From a bacterium (GTDB taxonomy: Bacteria > Bacteroidota > Bacteroidia > Chitinophagales > JADIYW01): 64,000 nt of DNA. The stretch covers positions 385,477-449,476 of the forward strand of contig JBBCIS010000003.1 of the NCBI GenBank assembly GCA_037189845.1, written 5' to 3'. The notes under the pieces were generated by a model. It had not been told where the DNA came from, made no database searches, and was given only the letters and a program-made list of their open reading frames with translations. The position numbers and the translations under genes are program-made. This document shows, one piece after another, positions 20,323 through 36,484 of the stretch. Position 1 is the first letter of the stretch. Each line of letters starts with the position of its first letter.

Positions 20323-20506
20323 AGTTTTTTTGTTTAAGGTTTAAGGTTTGATGTTTAAAGTTTTGCTGTCGCCCGGTGGCTGAGCAGTTCGACTACGTGG
20401 TTGTTGAGCCCAGTCGAAACACTTACTGACCACGGAGTTGGAGCCTGATTGAGTCCACGGTCCACAGACCGCCGTATTTGTCGTCTGTCATCCGTGGTCT
20501 GTTGAG

Positions 20507-25989: not shown

Positions 25990-28900
25990 TCAATTATCTC
26001 CACCTCTTTTTCCAAGCAGCTTCACCAGTTTCTGCATGTGCTCATTCAGCCCGGAGAATTGCATCAGTACCTGTGCAGTCTTGTCATCATCAGCGATACC
26101 GGAAAACTGGTTGTTTTTGCGGAAGGTTTCTGTGATGTGCAAATAGCGGGCCTGCTCTTCCGGAGTGGCGATATGCATCAGATGTTTCAGCTTTAAAAGA
26201 TTGGCTTCGGCATCGGAAGTGAGTGTCTGCGCATCTGCCTCATAAGATCCGATCACCAGCTGTATCAGCTCCTGCTCATTCATTAACGGGACGACTTTCG
26301 TGACCATTTTATTCATGTTGCGGTATGAACCCTGTAATTTGAACGCAGGTTCTGTACGGTAGGTGTCTTTCATTCCTGCGCTCTGAATGTATAGTTCGTT
26401 GACCTGAAGAATAATATTTCTGATGTACAGACAGTTTTTCAGAACAGCTATGCTGTCTTCGATTTCGGCAGCTGTATGGTTGGCTTCCAACTCCGGACTG
26501 TATTCTTCTTTGCGCTCGATATACTGTATGAGCTTGTACAGATCATTGATGTTTTTGTGGGCTATCGCCTGGAGATACCTGTTTTCGCTGATGGCATTTT
26601 CTATCAGGCTGAGGTCAAAATATTGCCTGCTCTCTCCTGCCACATCTCCCAGATTATATACATCCGAACGATTGGCCAGCATGTCCGGGATTTTGAAAAG
26701 ATTACCGCTTTCTGTATATGGATTACCCGCCATGACCACGCAGAATCTTTTGCCACGAAGGTCATAAGTTTTACTTTCTGATTCAAAGATGCCGTCTATC
26801 TTGCGCTGTCCGTCTGCCAGAGAGATAAACTGCTGTAAAAATTCAGGGCTGCAATGCTGGATATCATCTACATACAGCATGACATTGTCCGCCATCTCAA
26901 AGGAGAGGTTAATTTTTTCCAACTCTGCTTTTGCTCCTGAATTGGTAGCTTCTGACGGATCGATGCTGGTGATGCGGTGACCGATAGTAGGGCCGTTGAT
27001 TTTTACAAAATGTAGTCCCATCGTTGCTGCCAGATATTCCATCAGAGTGGTTTTACCATAACCCGGAGGAGAAATCAACAACAGCATACCCATTCTTGCT
27101 GTCCGCTTGTCATTGCCGATAGTACCCAGCTGCTTGGACAAATTGGCTCCAATCATAGGGAAATAGACTTCATTGATGAGCTTATTTCTCATGAATGAGC
27201 TGAGTACTTTGGGACGCATTTCCTGAATTTTTAACCGCTGCTCATATTTTTGGATGAGTCCGCGTTTGGTTTCCCTGAATGAGTCATACAACGGAACTGT
27301 TGTCTCATCGAAATGCTGTAAACGATTCAGAAAATCATGGTACTGAATATGATATCCCTGATCTGAGATCACCGGATGAGTACCCTTTAAGTCATGAATG
27401 GTCATGGCATCTGTACCGATGTGTTCCCGGTATGCATCAAATTCAAAAACCAGCAGACAGGCTGCTTCTTCTATATATTTGAGATTATAGGAATTTTCTT
27501 TTTGTGTAGTAACGAAGGCCTCTATCCAGTCCGAAATGGTATGGTAGCGTTCATAGAGGCTATACTGCTGATTGCGCGCATCTTCTTCAAAACGCTCCAT
27601 CTGATGGAGGTCATTCAGGTGCCTGATAAAATCATTTTTGATATGGATAGCCGGAATACTGGCGGTAAAAACCGGAGTATCCTCAAATTCAGCTATCAGA
27701 TATGATGCTATTGAATGAATGGTCCGCTGATGTAATTCGGGGTGAATTTTTTGTATCTCCTGTGTCAGTGCTTTGAAGGATTTCAATTCTTCAAATGGTG
27801 TCTGAAATAATTGATGAATCTTATGGGCTGATTGTATCCATTGGGATAATTTTTCCCTGGTTGCTTCTTCCAATTGTTTCCAGTACAATTGAGCCTGCAC
27901 CCTGATTTCTACAGAAAATCTCAGCACACCGAGTTCTTCATACATTTTCAGTAATGCTTCAAATATCATCAAGGCATCTGTATTGTGTACACCTTTTACA
28001 TATCCGCCTGCGTAATCTCTTTCTATTAAATTATCAATATAGGTCAATGCAGAAAATCCGTTATCCGTTTTGGTATAAGCTATAAAGGTGAGATAAGCCA
28101 GATATTCCGCCCGGTAAACGCCCGGATTTTCTGAACGGTAATCCTGATCCCAGACACTGATATATTGCTGAAAGATTTTCTGATCAATAGGCTGGTAAAA
28201 GTTGGTTCCCATCAGGTGATACATGAGCCTGTCCTGATGTTTGACGATGGTGAGCGATAATTCCTGCTTATTGACCGCAAACTTATATGTACCAAGTGCG
28301 ATAATATTTTGTCCGTCCACAAAAAGTTCGGCCTGATCATGCAAGACCCTCACTGCATTTTCCTGCGCCAGCTTGAGACTGTTAAGCAGGTTTTCAGCTT
28401 TCCCGACATCACCGAGCTGCTGAAGCTCCTGCGCAAGATTCCGGATTTTTTCTATCATGAGATCGCCGGCAAAAAAGCTGAAGATTTCTTCTGTTGAGCT
28501 AAAGCTACGGGCTTTGGTTTCCACACTTTTCAGGACACGAAGTCCTATTTGCTCAAGATTCCCGGTCCGTTTATTGATCTGTGCGATCAACATTTCTTTT
28601 TTACCATTGAAAGCTTTGACTACCTCATCCCGCTTATCAGCTATTTTCATTATAAACTCATCAAAGTCCGCAAACTTGCTTTCCAGCTCTTCGATGTGGA
28701 CACTGATTTTGGTGAAATAGTTGTCTGTTTTTTCGACAGTATCTGAAAGGTCCAGGAAATTGACAATGCTTTGTTCGAGCAAGGTCAGCTGTGCATGAAA
28801 CTCCCCGACTGCTTCACTGGACTTCAGGGTACTTATTTTCCTGTTCAATAAAGCTCTGACTTCATTCAATGTTGAAAAAAGCAAAGAGATATTCTCAATG

Positions 28901-30837
28901 ATTTTAGTCGTTTGAGTGGTATCTTCTATTTTAAGGCTGTTCAGTATGTCAATGAGCAATTCTAATTGTCCTGCTATGCTCAGACATTCCTTTTCAATGA
29001 CCTGTGCATCTATGACTTTACTGACAGCTTCGATAGCCTGACGTTGTGCTTCGATATTTTTCTCATAAGGCAGTAAAGCATTCTCCTGTAATAAAAAGTT
29101 GATGGTTTCCTGTGAAAGTTGTTCATTGAATGCTTTAACCTGCTCTGACAAAGCCTGAATTGCCTGCTCATCAATATATCTTACCTGTAATAATTCAATG
29201 ATACTGCCCTGCGCCAGGCGGACAGTATGTAGCTGTCTGACCAGCTCATCGACTGCGGTATAACGGGCATTCCTGATGGTTTGACTCAATTGTGCAATGC
29301 GTTCCTGCATGAGCTTTTCTTGTGCGGATGCGTACTGACGCTGTGCCTGTACTTTGGCAAATTCATCTATAGCTGTATTGGCTATCTCGCTGATGGCTTT
29401 CAGCGGTTCTGCAAGATTGAAAGTTTCTTCGTCAGCCAGCCAGAAATAGCTGTCTGTCATCGCACGGGACAATCTGGCTATATCTTCATACAATCCTTCA
29501 TAACTGTCTTCTTTCCTGAGCAGCTGTACTATCTCATATCCTTCAGACATGGCGTGTACGATATCTTTATTGCCGATTTTGTACAGGACATTGTTTCTCA
29601 TTTCCCGATTTTCCACCAGGATTGCGGTATATGGAGTCTGCCAGATTTGTACCTGATGATGCCTGATGGCTTCACGTTCTGATTTGAAATAAATCAGCTT
29701 TCCATCCTGAAAAATTGTAAATCCATTGCAGATGATGGGCGTATTGACCTGCTGCTGAATCACGTTGTAAGACATCAATACATAGGTATTGGAGGTCTTC
29801 TGATAATAAACATACAGATAGTCTTCTCCATTCGGAGCTATCATGGTACGCATGTATTCCAGCTCATCTATTCCGTTGTCGAAGAGCTTATATTCTCCGT
29901 TTTGCAGATAATAGCCGTTGGAAAAGATAATTCCCTGCTGATCCGGCAATAGAACTCCGCTGTACAACAGGCTCGGAATATTATGGACTTCTTTTGTCCT
30001 GATGTTATAAATATAGGCTCTGGACTCTTCCTGGTAGGGCTGTATTTTGATAGCAATCAGGTTGCCTAAATCCGCATAAAAATAGTTGGCATCATCCAGC
30101 TGCTGATCCTTGTTGCTGACTGGTTCTGAGTAAATTCCCAGTCCACTCTCCGTATTATCTTCAATTTTGAAGGTGATGTCTCCGTTGATCGCTTCGATAA
30201 ACACCTTGTCCAGGATAGATATATGCGGATGTACCCCCAATCGCCTGTCTTCCAGACTGGTCTTTTTGAAATCAAAGCTATACTGTGGTGCAGTTCTGAC
30301 CTCATGAATGCTTCTGTCATCTATGTATTGCAGGCGATTTCCATCTATATACCACTTAAAAGCTTTCCTGTCGGCTACATTTTTTGAGCTCTGGAAAATC
30401 ATGTACAGATAATTCTCCGTCTTGTAGAATTTGGAGAAAAAGGCTTCTCTGTAGTATTTATAGAGGTTTTTAAAATCTGCTTCAAACTGTGGATCTGCAA
30501 TCAAATCCAGTGTCGTAGGCTCAAATTGTATATCCTGAAAATGATAGATACTGAATACATCATCCAGTGAGATCTCTTCTCTCAATCCAAAGTGAACATT
30601 GTAAGCAAAAATGCAATGCTCGCCCAATGCTATTATACCTCTCGCTACTCCATTGTGCTCGGTAGTGATACGCTGATTGGCAATCAGTGCAAACTGTTCG
30701 GTATTGAAAATGGCTTTTCTTCCAACATTCAATGCTGCCAAGCGATCGCTCAGTATCTTGCTCTGCTCCTGTAAACGATTACGGATAATTTCGTAAGTAC
30801 CCGCTTCTAAAGACATCATTGGATTGGATTTTGGCAT
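25990..30837 (-). CDS. giant (1615 aa) multidomain protein with MoxR-type AAA+ ATPase core; function unknown
   Basis: Uninterrupted ORF. Walker A LLLISPPGYGKTT at ~27061-27090, Walker B MLYVDDIQ, and MoxR-like sensor-1/helix-2 region FCVVMAGNPYTESGNLFKIPDMLANRSDVY. ~450-aa beta-rich N-domain and ~600-aa Q/E/L-rich helical middle. Confidence 0.7.
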   Translation of the reverse strand: MPKSNPMMSLEAGTYEIIRNRLQEQSKILSDRLAALNVGRKAIFNTEQFALIANQRITTEHNGVARGIIALGEHCIFAYNVHFGLREEISLDDVFSIYHFQDIQFEPTTLDLIADPQFEADFKNLYKYYREAFFSKFYKTENYLYMIFQSSKNVADRKAFKWYIDGNRLQYIDDRSIHEVRTAPQYSFDFKKTSLEDRRLGVHPHISILDKVFIEAINGDITFKIEDNTESGLGIYSEPVSNKDQQLDDANYFYADLGNLIAIKIQPYQEESRAYIYNIRTKEVHNIPSLLYSGVLLPDQQGIIFSNGYYLQNGEYKLFDNGIDELEYMRTMIAPNGEDYLYVYYQKTSNTYVLMSYNVIQQQVNTPIICNGFTIFQDGKLIYFKSEREAIRHHQVQIWQTPYTAILVENREMRNNVLYKIGNKDIVHAMSEGYEIVQLLRKEDSYEGLYEDIARLSRAMTDSYFWLADEETFNLAEPLKAISEIANTAIDEFAKVQAQRQYASAQEKLMQERIAQLSQTIRNARYTAVDELVRQLHTVRLAQGSIIELLQVRYIDEQAIQALSEQVKAFNEQLSQETINFLLQENALLPYEKNIEAQRQAIEAVSKVIDAQVIEKECLSIAGQLELLIDILNSLKIEDTTQTTKIIENISLLFSTLNEVRALLNRKISTLKSSEAVGEFHAQLTLLEQSIVNFLDLSDTVEKTDNYFTKISVHIEELESKFADFDEFIMKIADKRDEVVKAFNGKKEMLIAQINKRTGNLEQIGLRVLKSVETKARSFSSTEEIFSFFAGDLMIEKIRNLAQELQQLGDVGKAENLLNSLKLAQENAVRVLHDQAELFVDGQNIIALGTYKFAVNKQELSLTIVKHQDRLMYHLMGTNFYQPIDQKIFQQYISVWDQDYRSENPGVYRAEYLAYLTFIAYTKTDNGFSALTYIDNLIERDYAGGYVKGVHNTDALMIFEALLKMYEELGVLRFSVEIRVQAQLYWKQLEEATREKLSQWIQSAHKIHQLFQTPFEELKSFKALTQEIQKIHPELHQRTIHSIASYLIAEFEDTPVFTASIPAIHIKNDFIRHLNDLHQMERFEEDARNQQYSLYERYHTISDWIEAFVTTQKENSYNLKYIEEAACLLVFEFDAYREHIGTDAMTIHDLKGTHPVISDQGYHIQYHDFLNRLQHFDETTVPLYDSFRETKRGLIQKYEQRLKIQEMRPKVLSSFMRNKLINEVYFPMIGANLSKQLGTIGNDKRTARMGMLLLISPPGYGKTTLMEYLAATMGLHFVKINGPTIGHRITSIDPSEATNSGAKAELEKINLSFEMADNVMLYVDDIQHCSPEFLQQFISLADGQRKIDGIFESESKTYDLRGKRFCVVMAGNPYTESGNLFKIPDMLANRSDVYNLGDVAGESRQYFDLSLIENAISENRYLQAIAHKNINDLYKLIQYIERKEEYSPELEANHTAAEIEDSIAVLKNCLYIRNIILQVNELYIQSAGMKDTYRTEPAFKLQGSYRNMNKMVTKVVPLMNEQELIQLVIGSYEADAQTLTSDAEANLLKLKHLMHIATPEEQARYLHITETFRKNNQFSGIADDDKTAQVLMQFSGLNEHMQKLVKLLGKRGGDN

Positions 30838-30890
30838 TGATTTGAGGTTAAAGACATGAGACGAGAGACAATAGACTTAAGAAGTTTAAG

Positions 30891-30950
30891 GTTTAAAGTC
30901 TAAGGTTTAAAGTTTGCTCACGCAACGATTGAAAACCTTAGACTTTAAAC
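30891..30950. promoter_or_regulatory. 18-bp perfect inverted repeat GTTTAAAGTCTAAGGTTT-N24-AAACCTTAGACTTTAAAC between the flotillin and giant-ATPase genes
   Basis: Arms at 30891-30908 and 30933-30950 are exact reverse complements. No U-tract follows on the coding (minus) strand. Adjacent direct repeats AAGGTTTAAAGT x2. Confidence 0.6.
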
Positions 30951-30962
30951 AACTTATCAGAT

Positions 30963-33038
30963 TTACGAAAGCTTTTTATTAGACAATCCGAGATTGCTGG
31001 CCATATTCAAAAGATTATTGATTAACGGCCGGTCAGAATCATCACTCTGCTGATGCATTTTGAGTAAGATGCTGGAAATCGTCAGATTCTTAATATCGTT
31101 GGTGCTGACATTGTATTTGTCAGCAAAATCTCTGATTTTATCCAGTAGATCTCCGTTGGAAGAGCCATCTCCAATCAATGCATTTTTGATATGCGTGGCA
31201 TTCTCACTTTCGTTGATTAATCTATCGAAACCTTTGGCGTTAGAAACCTGATCGACAATATTCCGGAAGAACATGGTCTCTCCACCTACGATATCTATGT
31301 TGGCTGATTTCAGTGCCTCGGAAAGGACATCTGCCTGAGCCACTGCAACATCTTTCTGGATATTGATCTGTGCAAGTGCAATATCTTTATCTTTCTGCAC
31401 AAGGATTTTGAACTCTTCGTGGTCTTTGCCAACGCCGTCCAGCTTCTTCATTGCCTCTGCTTTCTCTTCAATACCGGATGCTTCTGCCAACGCTTTCTCT
31501 TTTGTTCCTTCTGCTTCCGCAAATGCTTTTTGTTTCATCACTTCCGCTTCCATCAGACCTTCTTTGCGTTTCGCATCTGCCATTTTCTCTACTACATTCG
31601 CCTCGACGATACCCTGGCGCTCAGTTGCAGCTGCTTTTGCCATCATTACTTCTGCTTCAGATAAACCGATAGTCGCTTCCTCACGTGCCTGGGCTTCTGC
31701 AAGAATTTTCCTTGCTTCTGCTTGTTTTGTAGCTGCATCTTTACGAGCTTCTGCATCGATCAGCATTTCTTTGGCTTTTTCTTCCGCCGCCTTTTTGTCC
31801 GCTTCTGCCGCTTTCACGGTATAGATTAATTTTTCTTCTGCCTGACGGGAAGCTTCGGTGATACCGACTGTTTTCACTCTTTCCACCTCACGGAAAGCTT
31901 CAATATCTTTGATGTTCTGCTCTTCTTCGACTACGCCTTTTTCTAATTTGACGCGCTCTTTGATGACATCCTGGATGTTTTTGCGTTCGATCTCGACCGT
32001 TTTTTCTTTCTCTATCTGGGCGAGTGTGACAATTTTCTCTTTTTCTGTCTGCTCCAATAATTTGTCTTTCTCTACTCTTTCAGTCTCTACCGCATCTGTT
32101 CTCAGCTTATTTTTCTCTGCAATGATGATCTGACGGAGCTTATTTTCTTCCTGAATGGCTAATTGTTCTTCTGTACGGATTCTGACCGTTTCAGATTTTA
32201 GTCTTTCTTCTTCTCTGACTTTGAGAATTTCTGCTTCTTCCCTGGATTTAATATTGTCAATTTCTCTTTTTTGCTTCTCTTCTTTTTCAGCCATCTGACG
32301 TTCCAATTCCAGTATAGCTTCTCTGGCTTCTACATTTTGTTTTTTGATGACTTTCTCCTCTTCTCTGCGGATCAGATTGGATTTGATATTCTGAGCGGCA
32401 GTCAGTTCCGTGATCTTTTTGATACCTTCTGAATCAAGGATATTTTCTGCACTTAAAAATCTTAGTTCCGTCTGTTCTAAATAATCGATAGCACAATCAT
32501 CTAAAATATATCCATTGAGGTCAGTACCGATCACATCCAGAATCTCATCCCTGAACTCCCGACGTGCTTCATACAGCTCTATGAAATCGAATTTTTTACC
32601 CGCAGTTTTAAGTGCTTCAGAAAATTTGGCTTCAAAAACGTTATTCAGCGTATCTACATCACTGGCACGGTCGCAACCTATCACCTGCGCTACATTGATG
32701 ACGTCATCAACACTTTTGTTGACCCGTACAAAAAATGCAACTTTGATATCTGCCCGGATATTATCCTTACAAATCAAACCATCGTGTTCCATCCGGTCGA
32801 TTTGTAATTTTTTTACGGAAATATCCATTATTTCCATTTTATGCAAAATAGGAATCACGTACATACCACTGTTAAAAGCAACCTTGCTGCCTCCGACACC
32901 TGTCCTTACGATAGCCTTGCCTTGCGGAATTTTTTTGTAAAATGTCGCAAATGCAAATAGTACAACGACGATAATGAAGATCACTCCGCATATCAACAGG
33001 ATGAGTAATCCTCCCAAATTGTCAAATAATGTTCCCAT
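30963..33038 (-). CDS. flotillin-family SPFH (band 7) protein
   Basis: N-terminal TM segment; SPFH domain; ~350 aa of E/K/A/R-rich coiled coil; 691 aa. Architecture of YqiK/FloT-type flotillins. Confidence 0.85.
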   Translation of the reverse strand: MGTLFDNLGGLLILLICGVIFIIVVVLFAFATFYKKIPQGKAIVRTGVGGSKVAFNSGMYVIPILHKMEIMDISVKKLQIDRMEHDGLICKDNIRADIKVAFFVRVNKSVDDVINVAQVIGCDRASDVDTLNNVFEAKFSEALKTAGKKFDFIELYEARREFRDEILDVIGTDLNGYILDDCAIDYLEQTELRFLSAENILDSEGIKKITELTAAQNIKSNLIRREEEKVIKKQNVEAREAILELERQMAEKEEKQKREIDNIKSREEAEILKVREEERLKSETVRIRTEEQLAIQEENKLRQIIIAEKNKLRTDAVETERVEKDKLLEQTEKEKIVTLAQIEKEKTVEIERKNIQDVIKERVKLEKGVVEEEQNIKDIEAFREVERVKTVGITEASRQAEEKLIYTVKAAEADKKAAEEKAKEMLIDAEARKDAATKQAEARKILAEAQAREEATIGLSEAEVMMAKAAATERQGIVEANVVEKMADAKRKEGLMEAEVMKQKAFAEAEGTKEKALAEASGIEEKAEAMKKLDGVGKDHEEFKILVQKDKDIALAQINIQKDVAVAQADVLSEALKSANIDIVGGETMFFRNIVDQVSNAKGFDRLINESENATHIKNALIGDGSSNGDLLDKIRDFADKYNVSTNDIKNLTISSILLKMHQQSDDSDRPLINNLLNMASNLGLSNKKLS

Positions 33039-33188
33039 GAAAATTGATTTAGTTTTAAATGTTTAAGGTTTTTTTAGTTTAAAGCCGATGAGTTTCGACA
33101 GGTGGTTTCCGGATCATTTCGACTCCGCTCAATGACCTCTTCAACACTCTATAGTGTTAACAAATTCGGCAATCGTAAATTGTAATTT

Positions 33189-33848
33189 TTAGTCTTGTAA
33201 TACATTTTGAACAGTAATCTCCGGAATGACCCAGTAGTATTTTCCTCCGTCTCCTTCATCTACCAGCATAACCTCTGCATTATATGAAATACGTTGTTTT
33301 GATTTACTTTTTACCAAAACCCTGATAACATCTTTCATAATGATAACTTCAGCATATCCCAGCTTGTCTCCTTCGATAGTAGATTTCATAAATCCTGTCC
33401 GCCCGATCAGCTCATGTGCTTCTTCGCCATTATATCCCATTGTTTTATACACTTTGATGAGTGGTTTGGTGGCCCATCTGGTCAAAAAATATGCAATGAA
33501 AAAAACCGGTAACAATATCAAAGCAGACTTCCAGCCCCATGCACCGATGTTCCAGATCATAGAAGCAGCTAAAGTAAACAACCAGGAAATCAGCTTGAAT
33601 GTACTGAGGACGACCATTATCGGCACTTTACCTACGTTAATAAATTCCAGCGCTTTGGAAAAAAAAGATGGTTCTGCGCCGTCAAGATCTGTGTCTACAT
33701 CTAATCCTTCCGGTGCTCCTACATCCAGGTCTCCCAGAAAATCTCCTGAAACGAATGTGACTAACCAATATATAGCAGACAGTCCTACTAAAGCCGTCAT
33801 GATAGCATTCGGTAAAGGGTCAAACAGATAGCTGATAATTGTTACCAT
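33189..33848 (-). CDS. NfeD-like membrane protein (YuaF/YqiJ-type, C-terminal OB-fold)
   Basis: Multi-TM N-terminus; C-terminal ...GDKLGYAEVIIMKDVIRVLVKSKSKQRISYNAEVMLVDE beta-barrel pattern. Sits immediately upstream of the flotillin gene, as in yuaF-floT / yqiJK. Confidence 0.65.
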   Translation of the reverse strand: MVTIISYLFDPLPNAIMTALVGLSAIYWLVTFVSGDFLGDLDVGAPEGLDVDTDLDGAEPSFFSKALEFINVGKVPIMVVLSTFKLISWLFTLAASMIWNIGAWGWKSALILLPVFFIAYFLTRWATKPLIKVYKTMGYNGEEAHELIGRTGFMKSTIEGDKLGYAEVIIMKDVIRVLVKSKSKQRISYNAEVMLVDEGDGGKYYWVIPEITVQNVLQD

Positions 33849-33867
33849 TGATTTTTATTCTTTTTGT

Positions 33868-34566
33868 TTACATACCCAGCTTGCTTTTGATTTCCGCAAG
33901 CTCTTTTTGAATAGAAAACCGATCATCTTTACAGATCTCGTCTATTTCATCTTTCACGCTGTGCTGAGCCTGAGCAATTTCTCCATACGCTTTAGCGAGT
34001 GCTTCCTGATCTTCAACTTTATCTTTCATTCTCTCCAGCATAGAAATCGTACTGTTGCTTTCAATCTGAGCGATTTGCTTATTCACCTGTTGTGTAGCAG
34101 CACTCACTTTGACTCTTGCACGTAACGTTTTCAGCTCCTTTTCCCATTTCGCCAGATTTTCTTTCAAGATCTGGATATTCTTCAGCATCTCTACTCCGGT
34201 CTGCTCATGAGTTTCCGCTTGTTGACCCAGCATTTCCGCATCCTCCAGATATTTTCTTTTCAGCGAAAGTGCCTCTGTTGCCAATTGCTCGGCTTTTTCA
34301 ATTTCCAGTTCCTGATCCTGTGCTTTTTTCAAAATCAGGATCGCCTTGTCTCCATAACTGACAGATTCCTTTTCACAGTGTGTCTGCTCATTTCGGGCAC
34401 GGATGCCCAAAGCTTTTACTCTGGCATACGCCTCTGTCGCTTGTGTCAAATCTTCTCTCAATTCTCTCAAACCCTGCTCTGTCATCTTCACAGGATCTTC
34501 CATTTTTTCTACAGCGGCATGAATCTCTGCCTGACCGATTCGAAATAATCTCTTGAAAATATTCAT
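33868..34566 (-). CDS. pspA: PspA/IM30 (ESCRT-III superfamily) protein
   Basis: MNIFKRLFRIGQAEIHAAVEKMEDPVKMTEQGLRELREDL aligns with the PspA/Vipp1 N-terminus (E. coli [28 protein letters not shown]); all-helical; 232 aa. Confidence 0.85.
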   Translation of the reverse strand: MNIFKRLFRIGQAEIHAAVEKMEDPVKMTEQGLRELREDLTQATEAYARVKALGIRARNEQTHCEKESVSYGDKAILILKKAQDQELEIEKAEQLATEALSLKRKYLEDAEMLGQQAETHEQTGVEMLKNIQILKENLAKWEKELKTLRARVKVSAATQQVNKQIAQIESNSTISMLERMKDKVEDQEALAKAYGEIAQAQHSVKDEIDEICKDDRFSIQKELAEIKSKLGM

Positions 34567-34585
34567 AACTTATAAATTTTAAAAA

Positions 34586-34984
34586 TTATCGTTTAGAAAA
34601 ATATATTATCTGCTCTCTGTATTCATAGAGTAGTAACCCTAATGAGTTCAGTGCAGCTTCCAGCTCGTTGAAATCCATATTCTCAATCTGCATGGTATAC
34701 CTGTACAAAACTTTATCACCCTCTTCGTTGATCACAAAGGCCCCATGCAGCATATCCCTGTTTTTCTGCAGCAATGCCTTGAACATTTCAAGATTATCTT
34801 CCTTGAATGAAAAGAGATAATACTCCATGATCAACAAGGGTGGCACTACGCCAATAATCAGATTCCTGATTCCGTCCTGCTCATTCTCAATTTTCATGAT
34901 TCCGGACAACTCATCTGCATAAGTCACTTTGTACTCTGCCTGGTGAATCAACTCCCTGATTTTATCCATGTATGATACTCTCAT
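34586..34984 (-). CDS. YbjN/DUF2170-like (type III secretion chaperone-fold) small protein, PspA-adjacent
   Basis: ~133 aa from Met MRVSYMDKIREL. Size, alpha/beta pattern and position next to pspA resemble E. coli yjfI-yjfJ and YbjN-family proteins. The ORF-track N-extension to 35074 is rejected. Confidence 0.45.
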   Translation of the reverse strand: MRVSYMDKIRELIHQAEYKVTYADELSGIMKIENEQDGIRNLIIGVVPPLLIMEYYLFSFKEDNLEMFKALLQKNRDMLHGAFVINEEGDKVLYRYTMQIENMDFNELEAALNSLGLLLYEYREQIIYFSKR

Positions 34985-35051
34985 AGGCAATTTATTTTTA
35001 GATTGAAAATATTGCTTACCTTTAAGCATAATAAAATTAGCAAAAAATATT

Positions 35052-35078
35052 TTAATTGCAAATATTTTTTGCAATTAA
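35052..35078. promoter_or_regulatory. perfect palindromic operator TTAATTGCAAA-N5-TTTGCAATTAA in the divergent promoter between the XRE regulator and the PspA cluster
   Basis: 11-bp arms are exact reverse complements. Additional half-site-like AATTAGCAAAA (35033) and AATTAGCACAT (35087, overlapping the XRE start codon). Confidence 0.7.
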
Positions 35079-35097
35079 GGAAAAATAATTAGCACAT

Positions 35098-35775
35098 ATG
35101 ACAAAGTTCGGTGTAAATATTAAGAAAATCAGGAAGACAAAAGGGCTAAGCCAACAGTCTCTTGCCGATATTTTCAATATTACCAGGGGGAACATCTCTT
35201 CTTATGAAGATAACCGCGCTGAGCCCAGACTAGAAACTATTATATCAATTGCTAATTATTTTGGCATTACAATTGAAAAATTATTAACAAAAGACCTCAC
35301 TATTAATGAGATCCTGCAGTTCAATTCAGATAAAATCATAGAAGATGAACAGAGATTGAGCAATCTGAAGCTGAAAGATGTTTATTTTATTAGCGATGAT
35401 ATTTTAGCAAAAGGCCTGCATCAGGATATCAGCTTTGAGGATTTTGACCAGTTTCCGCTTATTAAAATTCCGGACACCAGCACTTCATCTATTATCGCAT
35501 TGAGCTTCAATTCTAATATCCCGCATCATCAATATTTTGAGCAGTTTCCTTTAAATGATTTGTTGTTTTTCAGAAATATAGACCCTGCAAATATTCATCT
35601 TCTGGATCAGAAAATGGGGATGTCACTGAGTTCTCATAGCATTGTTTTAGGTCAATTTATTCAAGAACCTGATCAGGAAATTACTTTTTTTCTGAATCAG
35701 CAGTATCAGGAAAAAGTGGACTTGCAACAGACCAAGAGATACTGGAAGTTATTTGCCAGCTACAAGCATTTATAG
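35098..35775 (+). CDS. XRE (Cro/cI-type) HTH transcriptional regulator with uncharacterised C-terminal domain
   Basis: N-terminal IKKIRKTKGLSQQSLADIFNITRGNISSYEDNRAEPRLETIISIANYFGITIEKLL is a canonical XRE HTH; 225 aa. Confidence 0.8.
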   Translation: MTKFGVNIKKIRKTKGLSQQSLADIFNITRGNISSYEDNRAEPRLETIISIANYFGITIEKLLTKDLTINEILQFNSDKIIEDEQRLSNLKLKDVYFISDDILAKGLHQDISFEDFDQFPLIKIPDTSTSSIIALSFNSNIPHHQYFEQFPLNDLLFFRNIDPANIHLLDQKMGMSLSSHSIVLGQFIQEPDQEITFFLNQQYQEKVDLQQTKRYWKLFASYKHL

Positions 35776-36085: not shown

Positions 36086-36484
36086 ATGAAACACCTTGCT
36101 TTTTGTTTTTTAGCACTATTTACATATAAGGCAAATGCCCAACTAATTATCACAACATCTTTACGCCAAGATGCTGTCTGGGATGAAAATAAAGAAGAAT
36201 GGGAGGTACTTTCTTCTGAAGAAGGGAGTACACTTTTTGAGTTTGACCGCGAACTGACGCAATTCAAGCATACTACTCCAAGTATATCATCTGTTTATTA
36301 CATCGAAGATTGGGAGTACAATGAAGAAAATGTAAAATACACGATGGATGTTACGAGTGATGCAGGGAATGAGTATGAGTTAATCATTGACGGTATCAAC
36401 AATTGTGTGGCATTTTTTTACTGGAAGCAGGATAAATATATTCTCGTCAGACACACGATTGCTGAGACCAGGTTTGAAGAGTAG
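36086..36484 (+). CDS. hypothetical small secreted protein
   Basis: Signal peptide MKHLAFCFLALFTYKANAQ; no recognisable motif. Confidence 0.4.
   Translation: MKHLAFCFLALFTYKANAQLIITTSLRQDAVWDENKEEWEVLSSEEGSTLFEFDRELTQFKHTTPSISSVYYIEDWEYNEENVKYTMDVTSDAGNEYELIIDGINNCVAFFYWKQDKYILVRHTIAETRFEE

Follow-up and report, generated by a model that had tools for sequence, protein, structure and literature searches.

A six-gene locus in the stretch of bacterial DNA analysed here (64,000 nt of contig JBBCIS010000003.1, assembly GCA_037189845.1; hereafter the window) raises the question of why a giant AAA+ ATPase should be encoded together with PspA, a flotillin-like protein and an NfeD-like protein, and whether this combination constitutes a system of a new kind. 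Open reading frame (ORF) calling identified, in window order, genes encoding the ATPase, flotillin, NfeD, PspA and a CesT-like protein (all on the minus strand), followed by a divergent XRE-type regulator on the plus strand; the gaps within the five-gene minus-strand run are 19, 19, 150 and 125 nt (counted from the CesT-like gene to the ATPase gene). The ORF positions agree with the NCBI gene calls on GCA_037189325.1 (JBBCKK010019223.1), and the six gene positions proposed in an earlier note on this DNA were confirmed by both sources. The locus is a new example of a system that comparative genomics had brought to light in 2020–2024; as the idea has been published, it contributes an example and detail rather than a novel type of system.

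The published system is the CesT/Tir-PspA-YqiJ/YuaF-Band-7/flotillin-AAA+ operon described by authors including Ravi, Anantharaman, Aravind and Gennaro (Ravi et al. 2024, mSystems 9:e00847-23; bioRxiv 2020; PMC11237479). In Table S3 of that paper, the operon of Dokdonia donghaensis (ANH61663.1) is given with the elements "<-cHTH+Protease" (the label of the divergent regulator) and "Betapropeller+Coiled-coil+AAA-ATPase". The authors also described shortened operons without PspA and, from Proteobacteria, one that includes a PLD-family gene, and proposed ATP-dependent membrane remodelling comparable to that of Snf7/Vps4 (PMC11237479). The Dokdonia operon shares its six genes, their order and their orientation with the window locus, in which the CesT/Tir-PspA pair, a flotillin with a transmembrane (TM) segment and a Band-7 domain, a beta-propeller/coiled-coil/AAA+ ATPase and a divergent cHTH regulator were all found; the protease-like nature of the regulator's C-terminal domain is weakly supported. 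The two loci differ in that the PadR, PspC and Toastrack genes upstream of the Dokdonia operon are not adjacent in the window, and in that the host is another genome, a Chitinophagaceae-like metagenome-assembled genome. The published account contains no operator, linkage statistics or AAA+ clade assignment. The earlier note had not recognized the gene combination as a described system, a view overturned by this paper and by the experimentally studied bac operon of Pseudomonas aeruginosa, which has a matching order of gene types (see below). With a probability of roughly 0.6, the locus represents the operon type of Ravi et al. in Bacteroidota, divergent cHTH regulator included, and functions as an XRE-repressed machine of envelope stress and membrane maintenance.

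The conservation of this arrangement was examined in a survey of ATPase loci. At E < 1e-10 the ATPase has no fewer than 2935 homologs (1122 representatives at 50% clustering), and a one-genome-per-species scan yielded 588 or more loci; 80 of these were fetched. ORFs were called in the fetched loci and searched with iterated hidden Markov models built from the window proteins, and linkage was counted in the 62 loci whose sequence extends 6 kb or more upstream of the ATPase gene (6-10 kb upstream being examined). In 59 of these (95%), NfeD and flotillin genes are located immediately upstream of the ATPase gene on the same strand, the NfeD gene having a fixed place upstream of the flotillin gene. 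CesT and PspA genes are additionally present in 29 of the 62 loci, all from Bacteroidota, with the CesT-like gene directly upstream of the PspA gene, and in every one of these 29 the XRE gene is present in divergent orientation. The complete set of six genes is limited to Bacteroidota (Flavobacteriia, Sphingobacteriia, Bacteroidia and Cytophagia). Loci with only the NfeD-flotillin-ATPase triad were found in Planctomycetota, Verrucomicrobiota, Desulfobacterota, Clostridia and Saprospiraceae. Proteus mirabilis has the triad as well, and so does the megaplasmid pQBR103 of P. fluorescens; the ATPase homologs of these two are 36-38% identical.

The survey thus reveals an ancient core composed of NfeD, flotillin and the giant ATPase, distributed across Bacteroidota, Planctomycetota, Verrucomicrobiota, Desulfobacterota, Clostridia and Proteobacteria, and an add-on module of CesT, PspA and XRE that is present in Bacteroidota on an all-or-none basis. 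In 30 of the 59 triad loci no PspA gene was found in the 6-10 kb upstream (in one of these, L041, a PspA homolog is encoded downstream on the other strand), and therefore the conserved partner of the ATPase is the SPFH/NfeD pair. The idea that the membrane-protein neighbourhood is a linked one and not a product of chance was well borne out, the ATPase being accompanied by SPFH/NfeD genes in at least five phyla; lack of synteny with SPFH/PspA genes had been named beforehand as the refuting outcome, and clear synteny was found instead.

Several individual loci (numbered here with the prefix L) deserve mention. In L082 (P. fluorescens SBW25 pQBR103, NC_009444.1, 85112-97641), PspA heads a same-strand array in which the genes of a rhomboid protease, DUF2491, DUF350 and DUF1190 proteins and a glutathionylspermidine synthase (a polyamine-type PspA context) are joined directly to those of NfeD, SPFH and the giant ATPase, so that two types of PspA neighbourhood are joined on one plasmid. 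Inserts of 0.5-2.4 kb separate the flotillin and ATPase genes in 13 loci (L010, L014-L016, L020, L030, L042, L043, L046, L047, L058, L066 and L079). Their genes were considered as a possible missed component and rejected, being heterogeneous (a DUF559-like endonuclease, an IS200-like transposase, small lipoproteins and TM proteins). In one of these loci, L010, the ATPase frame is broken into two ORFs.

The divergent gene (35098-35775, plus strand) encodes an XRE/Cro-type helix-turn-helix (HTH) regulator of 225 aa (HTH_3, E 8.6e-13 in Pfam). The operator-like palindrome GCAAATATTTTTTGC (GCAAA-N5-TTTGC; 35058-35072) lies 26-40 nt upstream of its ATG, inside longer, overlapping dyads that span 35040-35078, one with perfect 13-nt arms (35040-35052/35060-35072) and the other with 11-nt arms (35052-35062/35068-35078). 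Of 30 orthologous intergenic regions between the XRE and CesT genes, phylogenetic footprinting revealed the motif GC[AT]AA-N5-TT[AT]GC in 23 and a looser variant in 28. The dyad is placed at a distance of 19-65 nt upstream from the XRE start, and the motif has a density of 3.9 per kb of intergenic sequence compared with 0.059 per kb of whole loci (~66-fold enrichment). The palindrome, first noticed in the window alone, is therefore upheld both by its perfect arms and by the conservation of its core. Within the regulator, residues 1-65 form the HTH domain, while the C-terminal domain (residues ~70-225; 35308-35775, plus strand) is poorly conserved and matches LexA alone in the PDB, at a non-significant E of 0.4-0.9. 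No Ser or Lys is invariant in the ortholog alignment of this domain. At the position of the LexA GDSM motif most orthologs have NLEM and the window protein SFNSN, and a single ortholog retains DNSM together with an R-K pair. We infer from these alignments a mostly inactivated S24-like domain, which suggests a pseudo-protease sensor or a dimerisation domain.

The ATPase (1615 aa; 25990-30837, minus strand) matches DUF3686 (E 5e-156), DUF7902 (E 3e-23) and AAA (E 2e-7). From its N-terminus, it consists of a helix, a beta-propeller-like DUF3686 domain (~64-384), a spectrin-like helical rod (~417-836, including DUF7902), a small beta domain, a helical domain (~900-1200), a single AAA+ module (~1240-1400) and a C-terminal helical region. 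TM prediction gave no segment in this protein, which is therefore regarded as soluble, flotillin and NfeD being predicted to be membrane-anchored. AlphaFold2 models have confidence scores (predicted local distance difference test, pLDDT) of 70-73, with low confidence in the AAA+ module and a confident helical domain at ~950-1200, and Foldseek searches with the N-terminal domain gave weak but consistent beta-propeller matches. The residues invariant in 34 sequences, down to 26% identity, are the Walker A G1259-Y-G-K-T1263, D1324, D1325, the sensor-1 residue N1372 and R1390. The Walker B motif is thus DD (residues 1324-1325) and not DE in all 34 sequences, which is unusual for a classical-type AAA+ protein and may, judging from the motif, indicate slow, switch-like hydrolysis.

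The AAA+ core had been regarded as MoxR-like, a label that did not hold: a profile of this region matched Rix7, VAT, p97/Cdc48, AFG2, NSF and the proteasomal Rpt proteins in the PDB, i.e. almost only classical-clade AAA, with one midasin match lower down, Pfam AAA (PF00004) scored above AAA_5, and the locus contains no gene for a VWA-domain protein, the usual neighbour of MoxR. The core thus resembles the classical clade (Cdc48/VAT/Rix7), an assignment that is indicative only because the PDB matches are short (~35-67 residues around the P-loop, E 1e-6). As a side observation, the ATPase ORFs of seven PspA-less loci from Planctomycetota, Verrucomicrobiota and Desulfobacterota (L027, L033, L036, L053, L056, L067 and L068) are 1750-2020 aa long, compared with ~1600-1650 aa in the six-gene loci of Bacteroidota, being ~150-400 aa longer, apparently at the C-terminus.

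The flotillin-like SPFH protein (691 aa; 30963-33038, minus strand) has one TM helix (residues 11-29), a Band-7 domain and a long Ala/Glu/Lys-rich coiled coil. The full-length protein gave no Pfam or PDB match, and neither did a 20-sequence profile; scanned alone, the N-terminal 223 aa matched Band_7 at residues 35-177 (E 1.8e-13). The domain is probably missed at full length because of the Ala/Glu/Lys composition bias of the coiled coil. The Pfam field is empty in the precomputed annotation of all 120 flotillin homologs listed, and the family is likely to be systematically under-annotated owing to the Band_7 miss. Its homologs, named flotillin, SPFH or YqiK in the source records, are ~80% identical across families, compared with ~60% identity among the ATPases, and these values point to strong purifying selection on the proteins of the locus.

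The putative short NfeD protein of the YqiJ-YuaF type (219 aa; 33189-33848, minus strand) has three hydrophobic segments (~15-33, 77-95 and 105-127) followed by a soluble C-terminal domain of ~90 aa. Its YqiJ_N match (E 3.7e-4) reaches 21.1 bits, below the Pfam cutoff of 23, and NfeD is the weakest of the family assignments. PspA/IM30 (232 aa; 33868-34566, minus strand; PF04012, E 7e-37), a member of the ESCRT-III superfamily, aligns over its full length to solved Vipp1/PspA structures (E 5e-16). The first gene of the operon (34586-34984, minus strand) encodes a small CesT/Tir-like chaperone or regulator of the YbjN superfamily (PF22550 CesT_Tir_1, E 3.9e-43; YbjN, E 9e-6), with alternative starts at 35029 (the NCBI call, 147 aa) and 35074 (the longest ORF). 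No match to solved structures was obtained for this protein, BacA of P. aeruginosa included if its entry is in the library. The family labels originally given to PspA, flotillin and the XRE-HTH protein stood, and so did the YbjN part of the label of the first gene, as CesT_Tir_1/YbjN; its DUF2170 part was lost, since Pfam gave no such match.

A structured element separates the flotillin and ATPase genes. The intercistronic RNA stem-loop at 30891-30950 (minus strand) has a perfect 18-bp stem and a minimum free energy of -29.6 kcal/mol (z -5.7), and none of 200 shuffled sequences was equally stable. Among 36 orthologous flotillin-ATPase spacers of 40-260 nt, 15 fold with z <= -3.8 (L004, L008, L013, L023-L026, L029, L032, L048, L050, L053, L061, L078 and L080), and these come from several phyla. 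Within the operon, the hairpin may act as an attenuator or may affect processing or stability, setting how much motor is made relative to scaffold. The 15-mer GTTTAAGGTTTAAAG, which had been taken as common to the ATPase and flotillin leaders, is part of the 3' arm and flank of this stem-loop; both of its copies (0 and 1 mismatch; 30884-30912) are in the ATPase leader, and the flotillin leader contains none at up to 2 mismatches. Only its 8-mer core GTTTAAGG is shared (at 33061). The window contains four copies of the 8-mer on the plus strand (CCTTAAAC in the mRNA sense), two at 20332-20346 and one each at 30884-30891 and 33061-33068, a number that does not exceed chance expectation (17 of 100 shuffles). 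Curiously, all four are located in 5' leaders of minus-strand genes, two in that of an unrelated formate/nitrite transporter and one each in those of the ATPase and flotillin.

Each part of the operon has relatives in characterized systems. In Bacillus subtilis pspA-ydjGHI, the SPFH protein YdjI reportedly recruits PspA to the membrane in an SPFH-dependent manner. NfeD-flotillin gene pairs, as in the window, are known from B. subtilis yuaF-floT and Escherichia coli yqiJK, and E. coli yjfIJ pairs a CesT-like protein, YjfI, with a PspA-like one, YjfJ. None of these four loci includes an AAA+ ATPase, whereas the window operon fuses the three modules and adds the giant ATPase. Compared with the canonical E. 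coli Psp system (PspF-PspABC), it has PspA alone, with no PspF, PspB or PspC match among the genes of the locus. FtsH-HflK/C, with its SPFH cage, and Vps4-ESCRT-III employ classical-clade AAA+ motors, the clade to which the P-loop region of the window ATPase is most similar; unlike FtsH and Vps4, the ATPase has no M41 protease, TM anchor, MIT or Vps4_C domain, and its N-terminal 1200 residues are unrelated to them.

The bac operon of P. aeruginosa looks like the proteobacterial counterpart of the window locus, by analogy of gene types. The genes bacABCDEF (PA3732-PA3727, "biofilm-associated cluster") form one transcript, deletion of bacA raises BacB-F 6-13-fold, and the phenotypes concern biofilm, rhamnolipid production and virulence (PMC10948618). 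The order corresponds to that in the window, BacA having the CesT fold, BacB being PspA, BacC a short NfeD, BacD an SPFH protein (PaFlo3) and BacE the product of a large gene with an ATPase annotation; in strain-specific numbering, PA14_16160 is the short NfeD and PA14_16180 the SPFH protein (PMC13086221). The operons differ in that bac has a sixth gene, bacF, where the window operon ends at a convergent Crp gene, and in that bac has a sigma-54 promoter, whereas in the window a divergent XRE gene and an operator occupy the promoter region. Among ten high-GC distant representatives of the ATPase family, considered as possible P. aeruginosa orthologs, the named ones were Actinomycetota (Streptomyces and Actinacidiphila).

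These comparisons allow a mechanism to be outlined. An XRE dimer would bind GCAAA-N5-TTTGC and keep the five-gene operon as well as the XRE gene repressed until membrane stress is signalled. As the LexA-like C-terminal domain lacks the catalytic dyad, dimerisation or partner binding would be a likelier role for it than self-cleavage. The CesT-like protein, by analogy with BacA, might keep PspA in an assembly-incompetent or regulatory complex. TM-anchored flotillin and the three-TM NfeD protein would build a cytoplasmic SPFH cage or microdomain, and this scaffold would recruit PspA to damaged membrane, as reported for YdjI in B. subtilis. The soluble ATPase could dock on it through its propeller and spectrin-like rod, and its single classical-type AAA+ ring could assemble, remodel or clear the scaffold, PspA polymers or trapped clients. 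The structured spacer probably lowers the expression of the ATPase relative to the scaffold proteins. A wider proposal, which we put forward tentatively and consider doubtful, is that SPFH/ESCRT-III scaffolds in bacteria find their missing motor in this ATPase, a hexameric, classical-type functional counterpart of Vps4 or FtsH to which PspA, CesT and XRE were added secondarily in Bacteroidota. It would sit, by way of propeller and rod, on the cytoplasmic side of a cage of flotillin and NfeD and spend ATP on remodelling or clearing PspA polymers, the cage itself or trapped clients.

Several points weigh against the explanation as a stress-induced machine. Beyond the conserved operon and its operator, its mechanistic steps are what we infer. 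XRE could be a repressor or an activator. With DD in place of DE in the Walker B motif, robust unfoldase-type hydrolysis is not assured. The P. aeruginosa parallel is also imperfect: BacA belongs to DUF2170/YjfI, whereas the first gene of the window belongs to PF22550 and has neither a DUF2170 nor a structure match, so that the role of BacA is transferred by analogy, and BacE (PA3728) was likened to the window ATPase by annotation and gene order. Finally, deletion of paFlo3 in P. aeruginosa had marginal phenotypes (PMC13086221).

Apart from the XRE-repressed machine of membrane maintenance, the ATPase could be read as a dedicated Vps4/CdvC-like disassembly factor for PspA polymers, with flotillin and NfeD as a mere membrane platform. 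This agrees with the operon shared by the ATPase and PspA in the 29 Bacteroidota loci, with the PspA-headed array on pQBR103 and with the resemblance of the AAA+ region to the clade that includes Vps4; Ravi et al. offered the same analogy (PMC11237479), and a 2025 review regards a bacterial equivalent of Vps4 as missing (PMC7619361). On the other hand, 30 of the 59 triad loci have no PspA upstream (a count that refers to the stretch of 6-10 kb examined), Pfam detected no MIT or Vps4_C domain, the N-terminus being DUF3686, and the protein is four times the size of Vps4, with a propeller-plus-rod architecture. The role of dedicated PspA remodeller suggested in the earlier note is thereby weakened, and we judge it unlikely. 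An unrelated function, as implied by the Pfam description of DUF3686 ("ATPase involved in DNA repair") and by the NCBI homolog name "DNA repair ATPase", appears highly improbable: no DNA-binding, nuclease or helicase domain was detected in the protein, a full-text literature search for DUF3686 found no paper, leaving the database label without traceable support, and the 95% linkage to NfeD and flotillin ties the protein to its membrane neighbours.

The other alternative raised at the outset, a membrane-associated module of phage defence or abortive infection that XRE would control, has to be considered, as XRE-type regulators are frequent beside defence systems. The XRE protein matches HTH/CapH/RmrA-type PADLOC models, although through its HTH, and searches of PADLOC-DB 2.0 otherwise gave generic HTH matches and noise at E > 1e-5, with no core component. 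There is no toxin or nuclease effector, and the flanking genes are involved in nitrite assimilation or encode Crp and type IX secretion system (T9SS) cargo. One copy is carried by a megaplasmid, but the very high conservation and the stable gene order across phyla are unlike those of fast-evolving defence islands. The homologous cluster of P. aeruginosa (PA3728-PA3732) is induced by phage infection (PMC12041424), a response that is also classical Psp stress behaviour. A defence function, for which PADLOC, the conservation and the nitrite-assimilation context offered nothing, is therefore quite improbable, and an XRE-controlled membrane-maintenance machine is preferred.

The limits of the system were set by comparison with related loci. 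The five-gene operon stops at the convergent Crp-family gene that comes after the ATPase gene. This Crp gene and a 132-aa ORF beside the XRE gene (36086-36484) were considered as components and rejected; neither has a counterpart in related loci, and both are therefore outside the system. No Rfam family was matched anywhere in the window, and a scan of the window for sigma-70 promoters and terminators gave results not above chance, with a scan model ill-suited to Bacteroidota.

New in this study are the statistics of gene linkage, the operator, the structured spacer that recurs between the flotillin and ATPase genes and the recognition of a classical-AAA-like motor with a DD Walker B motif. 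How PspA/Vipp1 polymers and SPFH cages are assembled and disassembled in bacteria is an open question, and according to a 2025 review a Vps4-like ATPase appears to be absent from them (PMC7619361). The operon family described here ties a large AAA+ protein to flotillin and NfeD and, in Bacteroidota and some Proteobacteria, also to PspA, and this hard-wired association makes it an obvious experimental entry point. The target is now sharper, since NfeD and flotillin take precedence over PspA as partners, a regulator and a putative operator have been defined, and the six-gene version is present in tractable hosts, i.e. Flavobacterium, Sphingobacterium, Chryseobacterium and Bacteroides.

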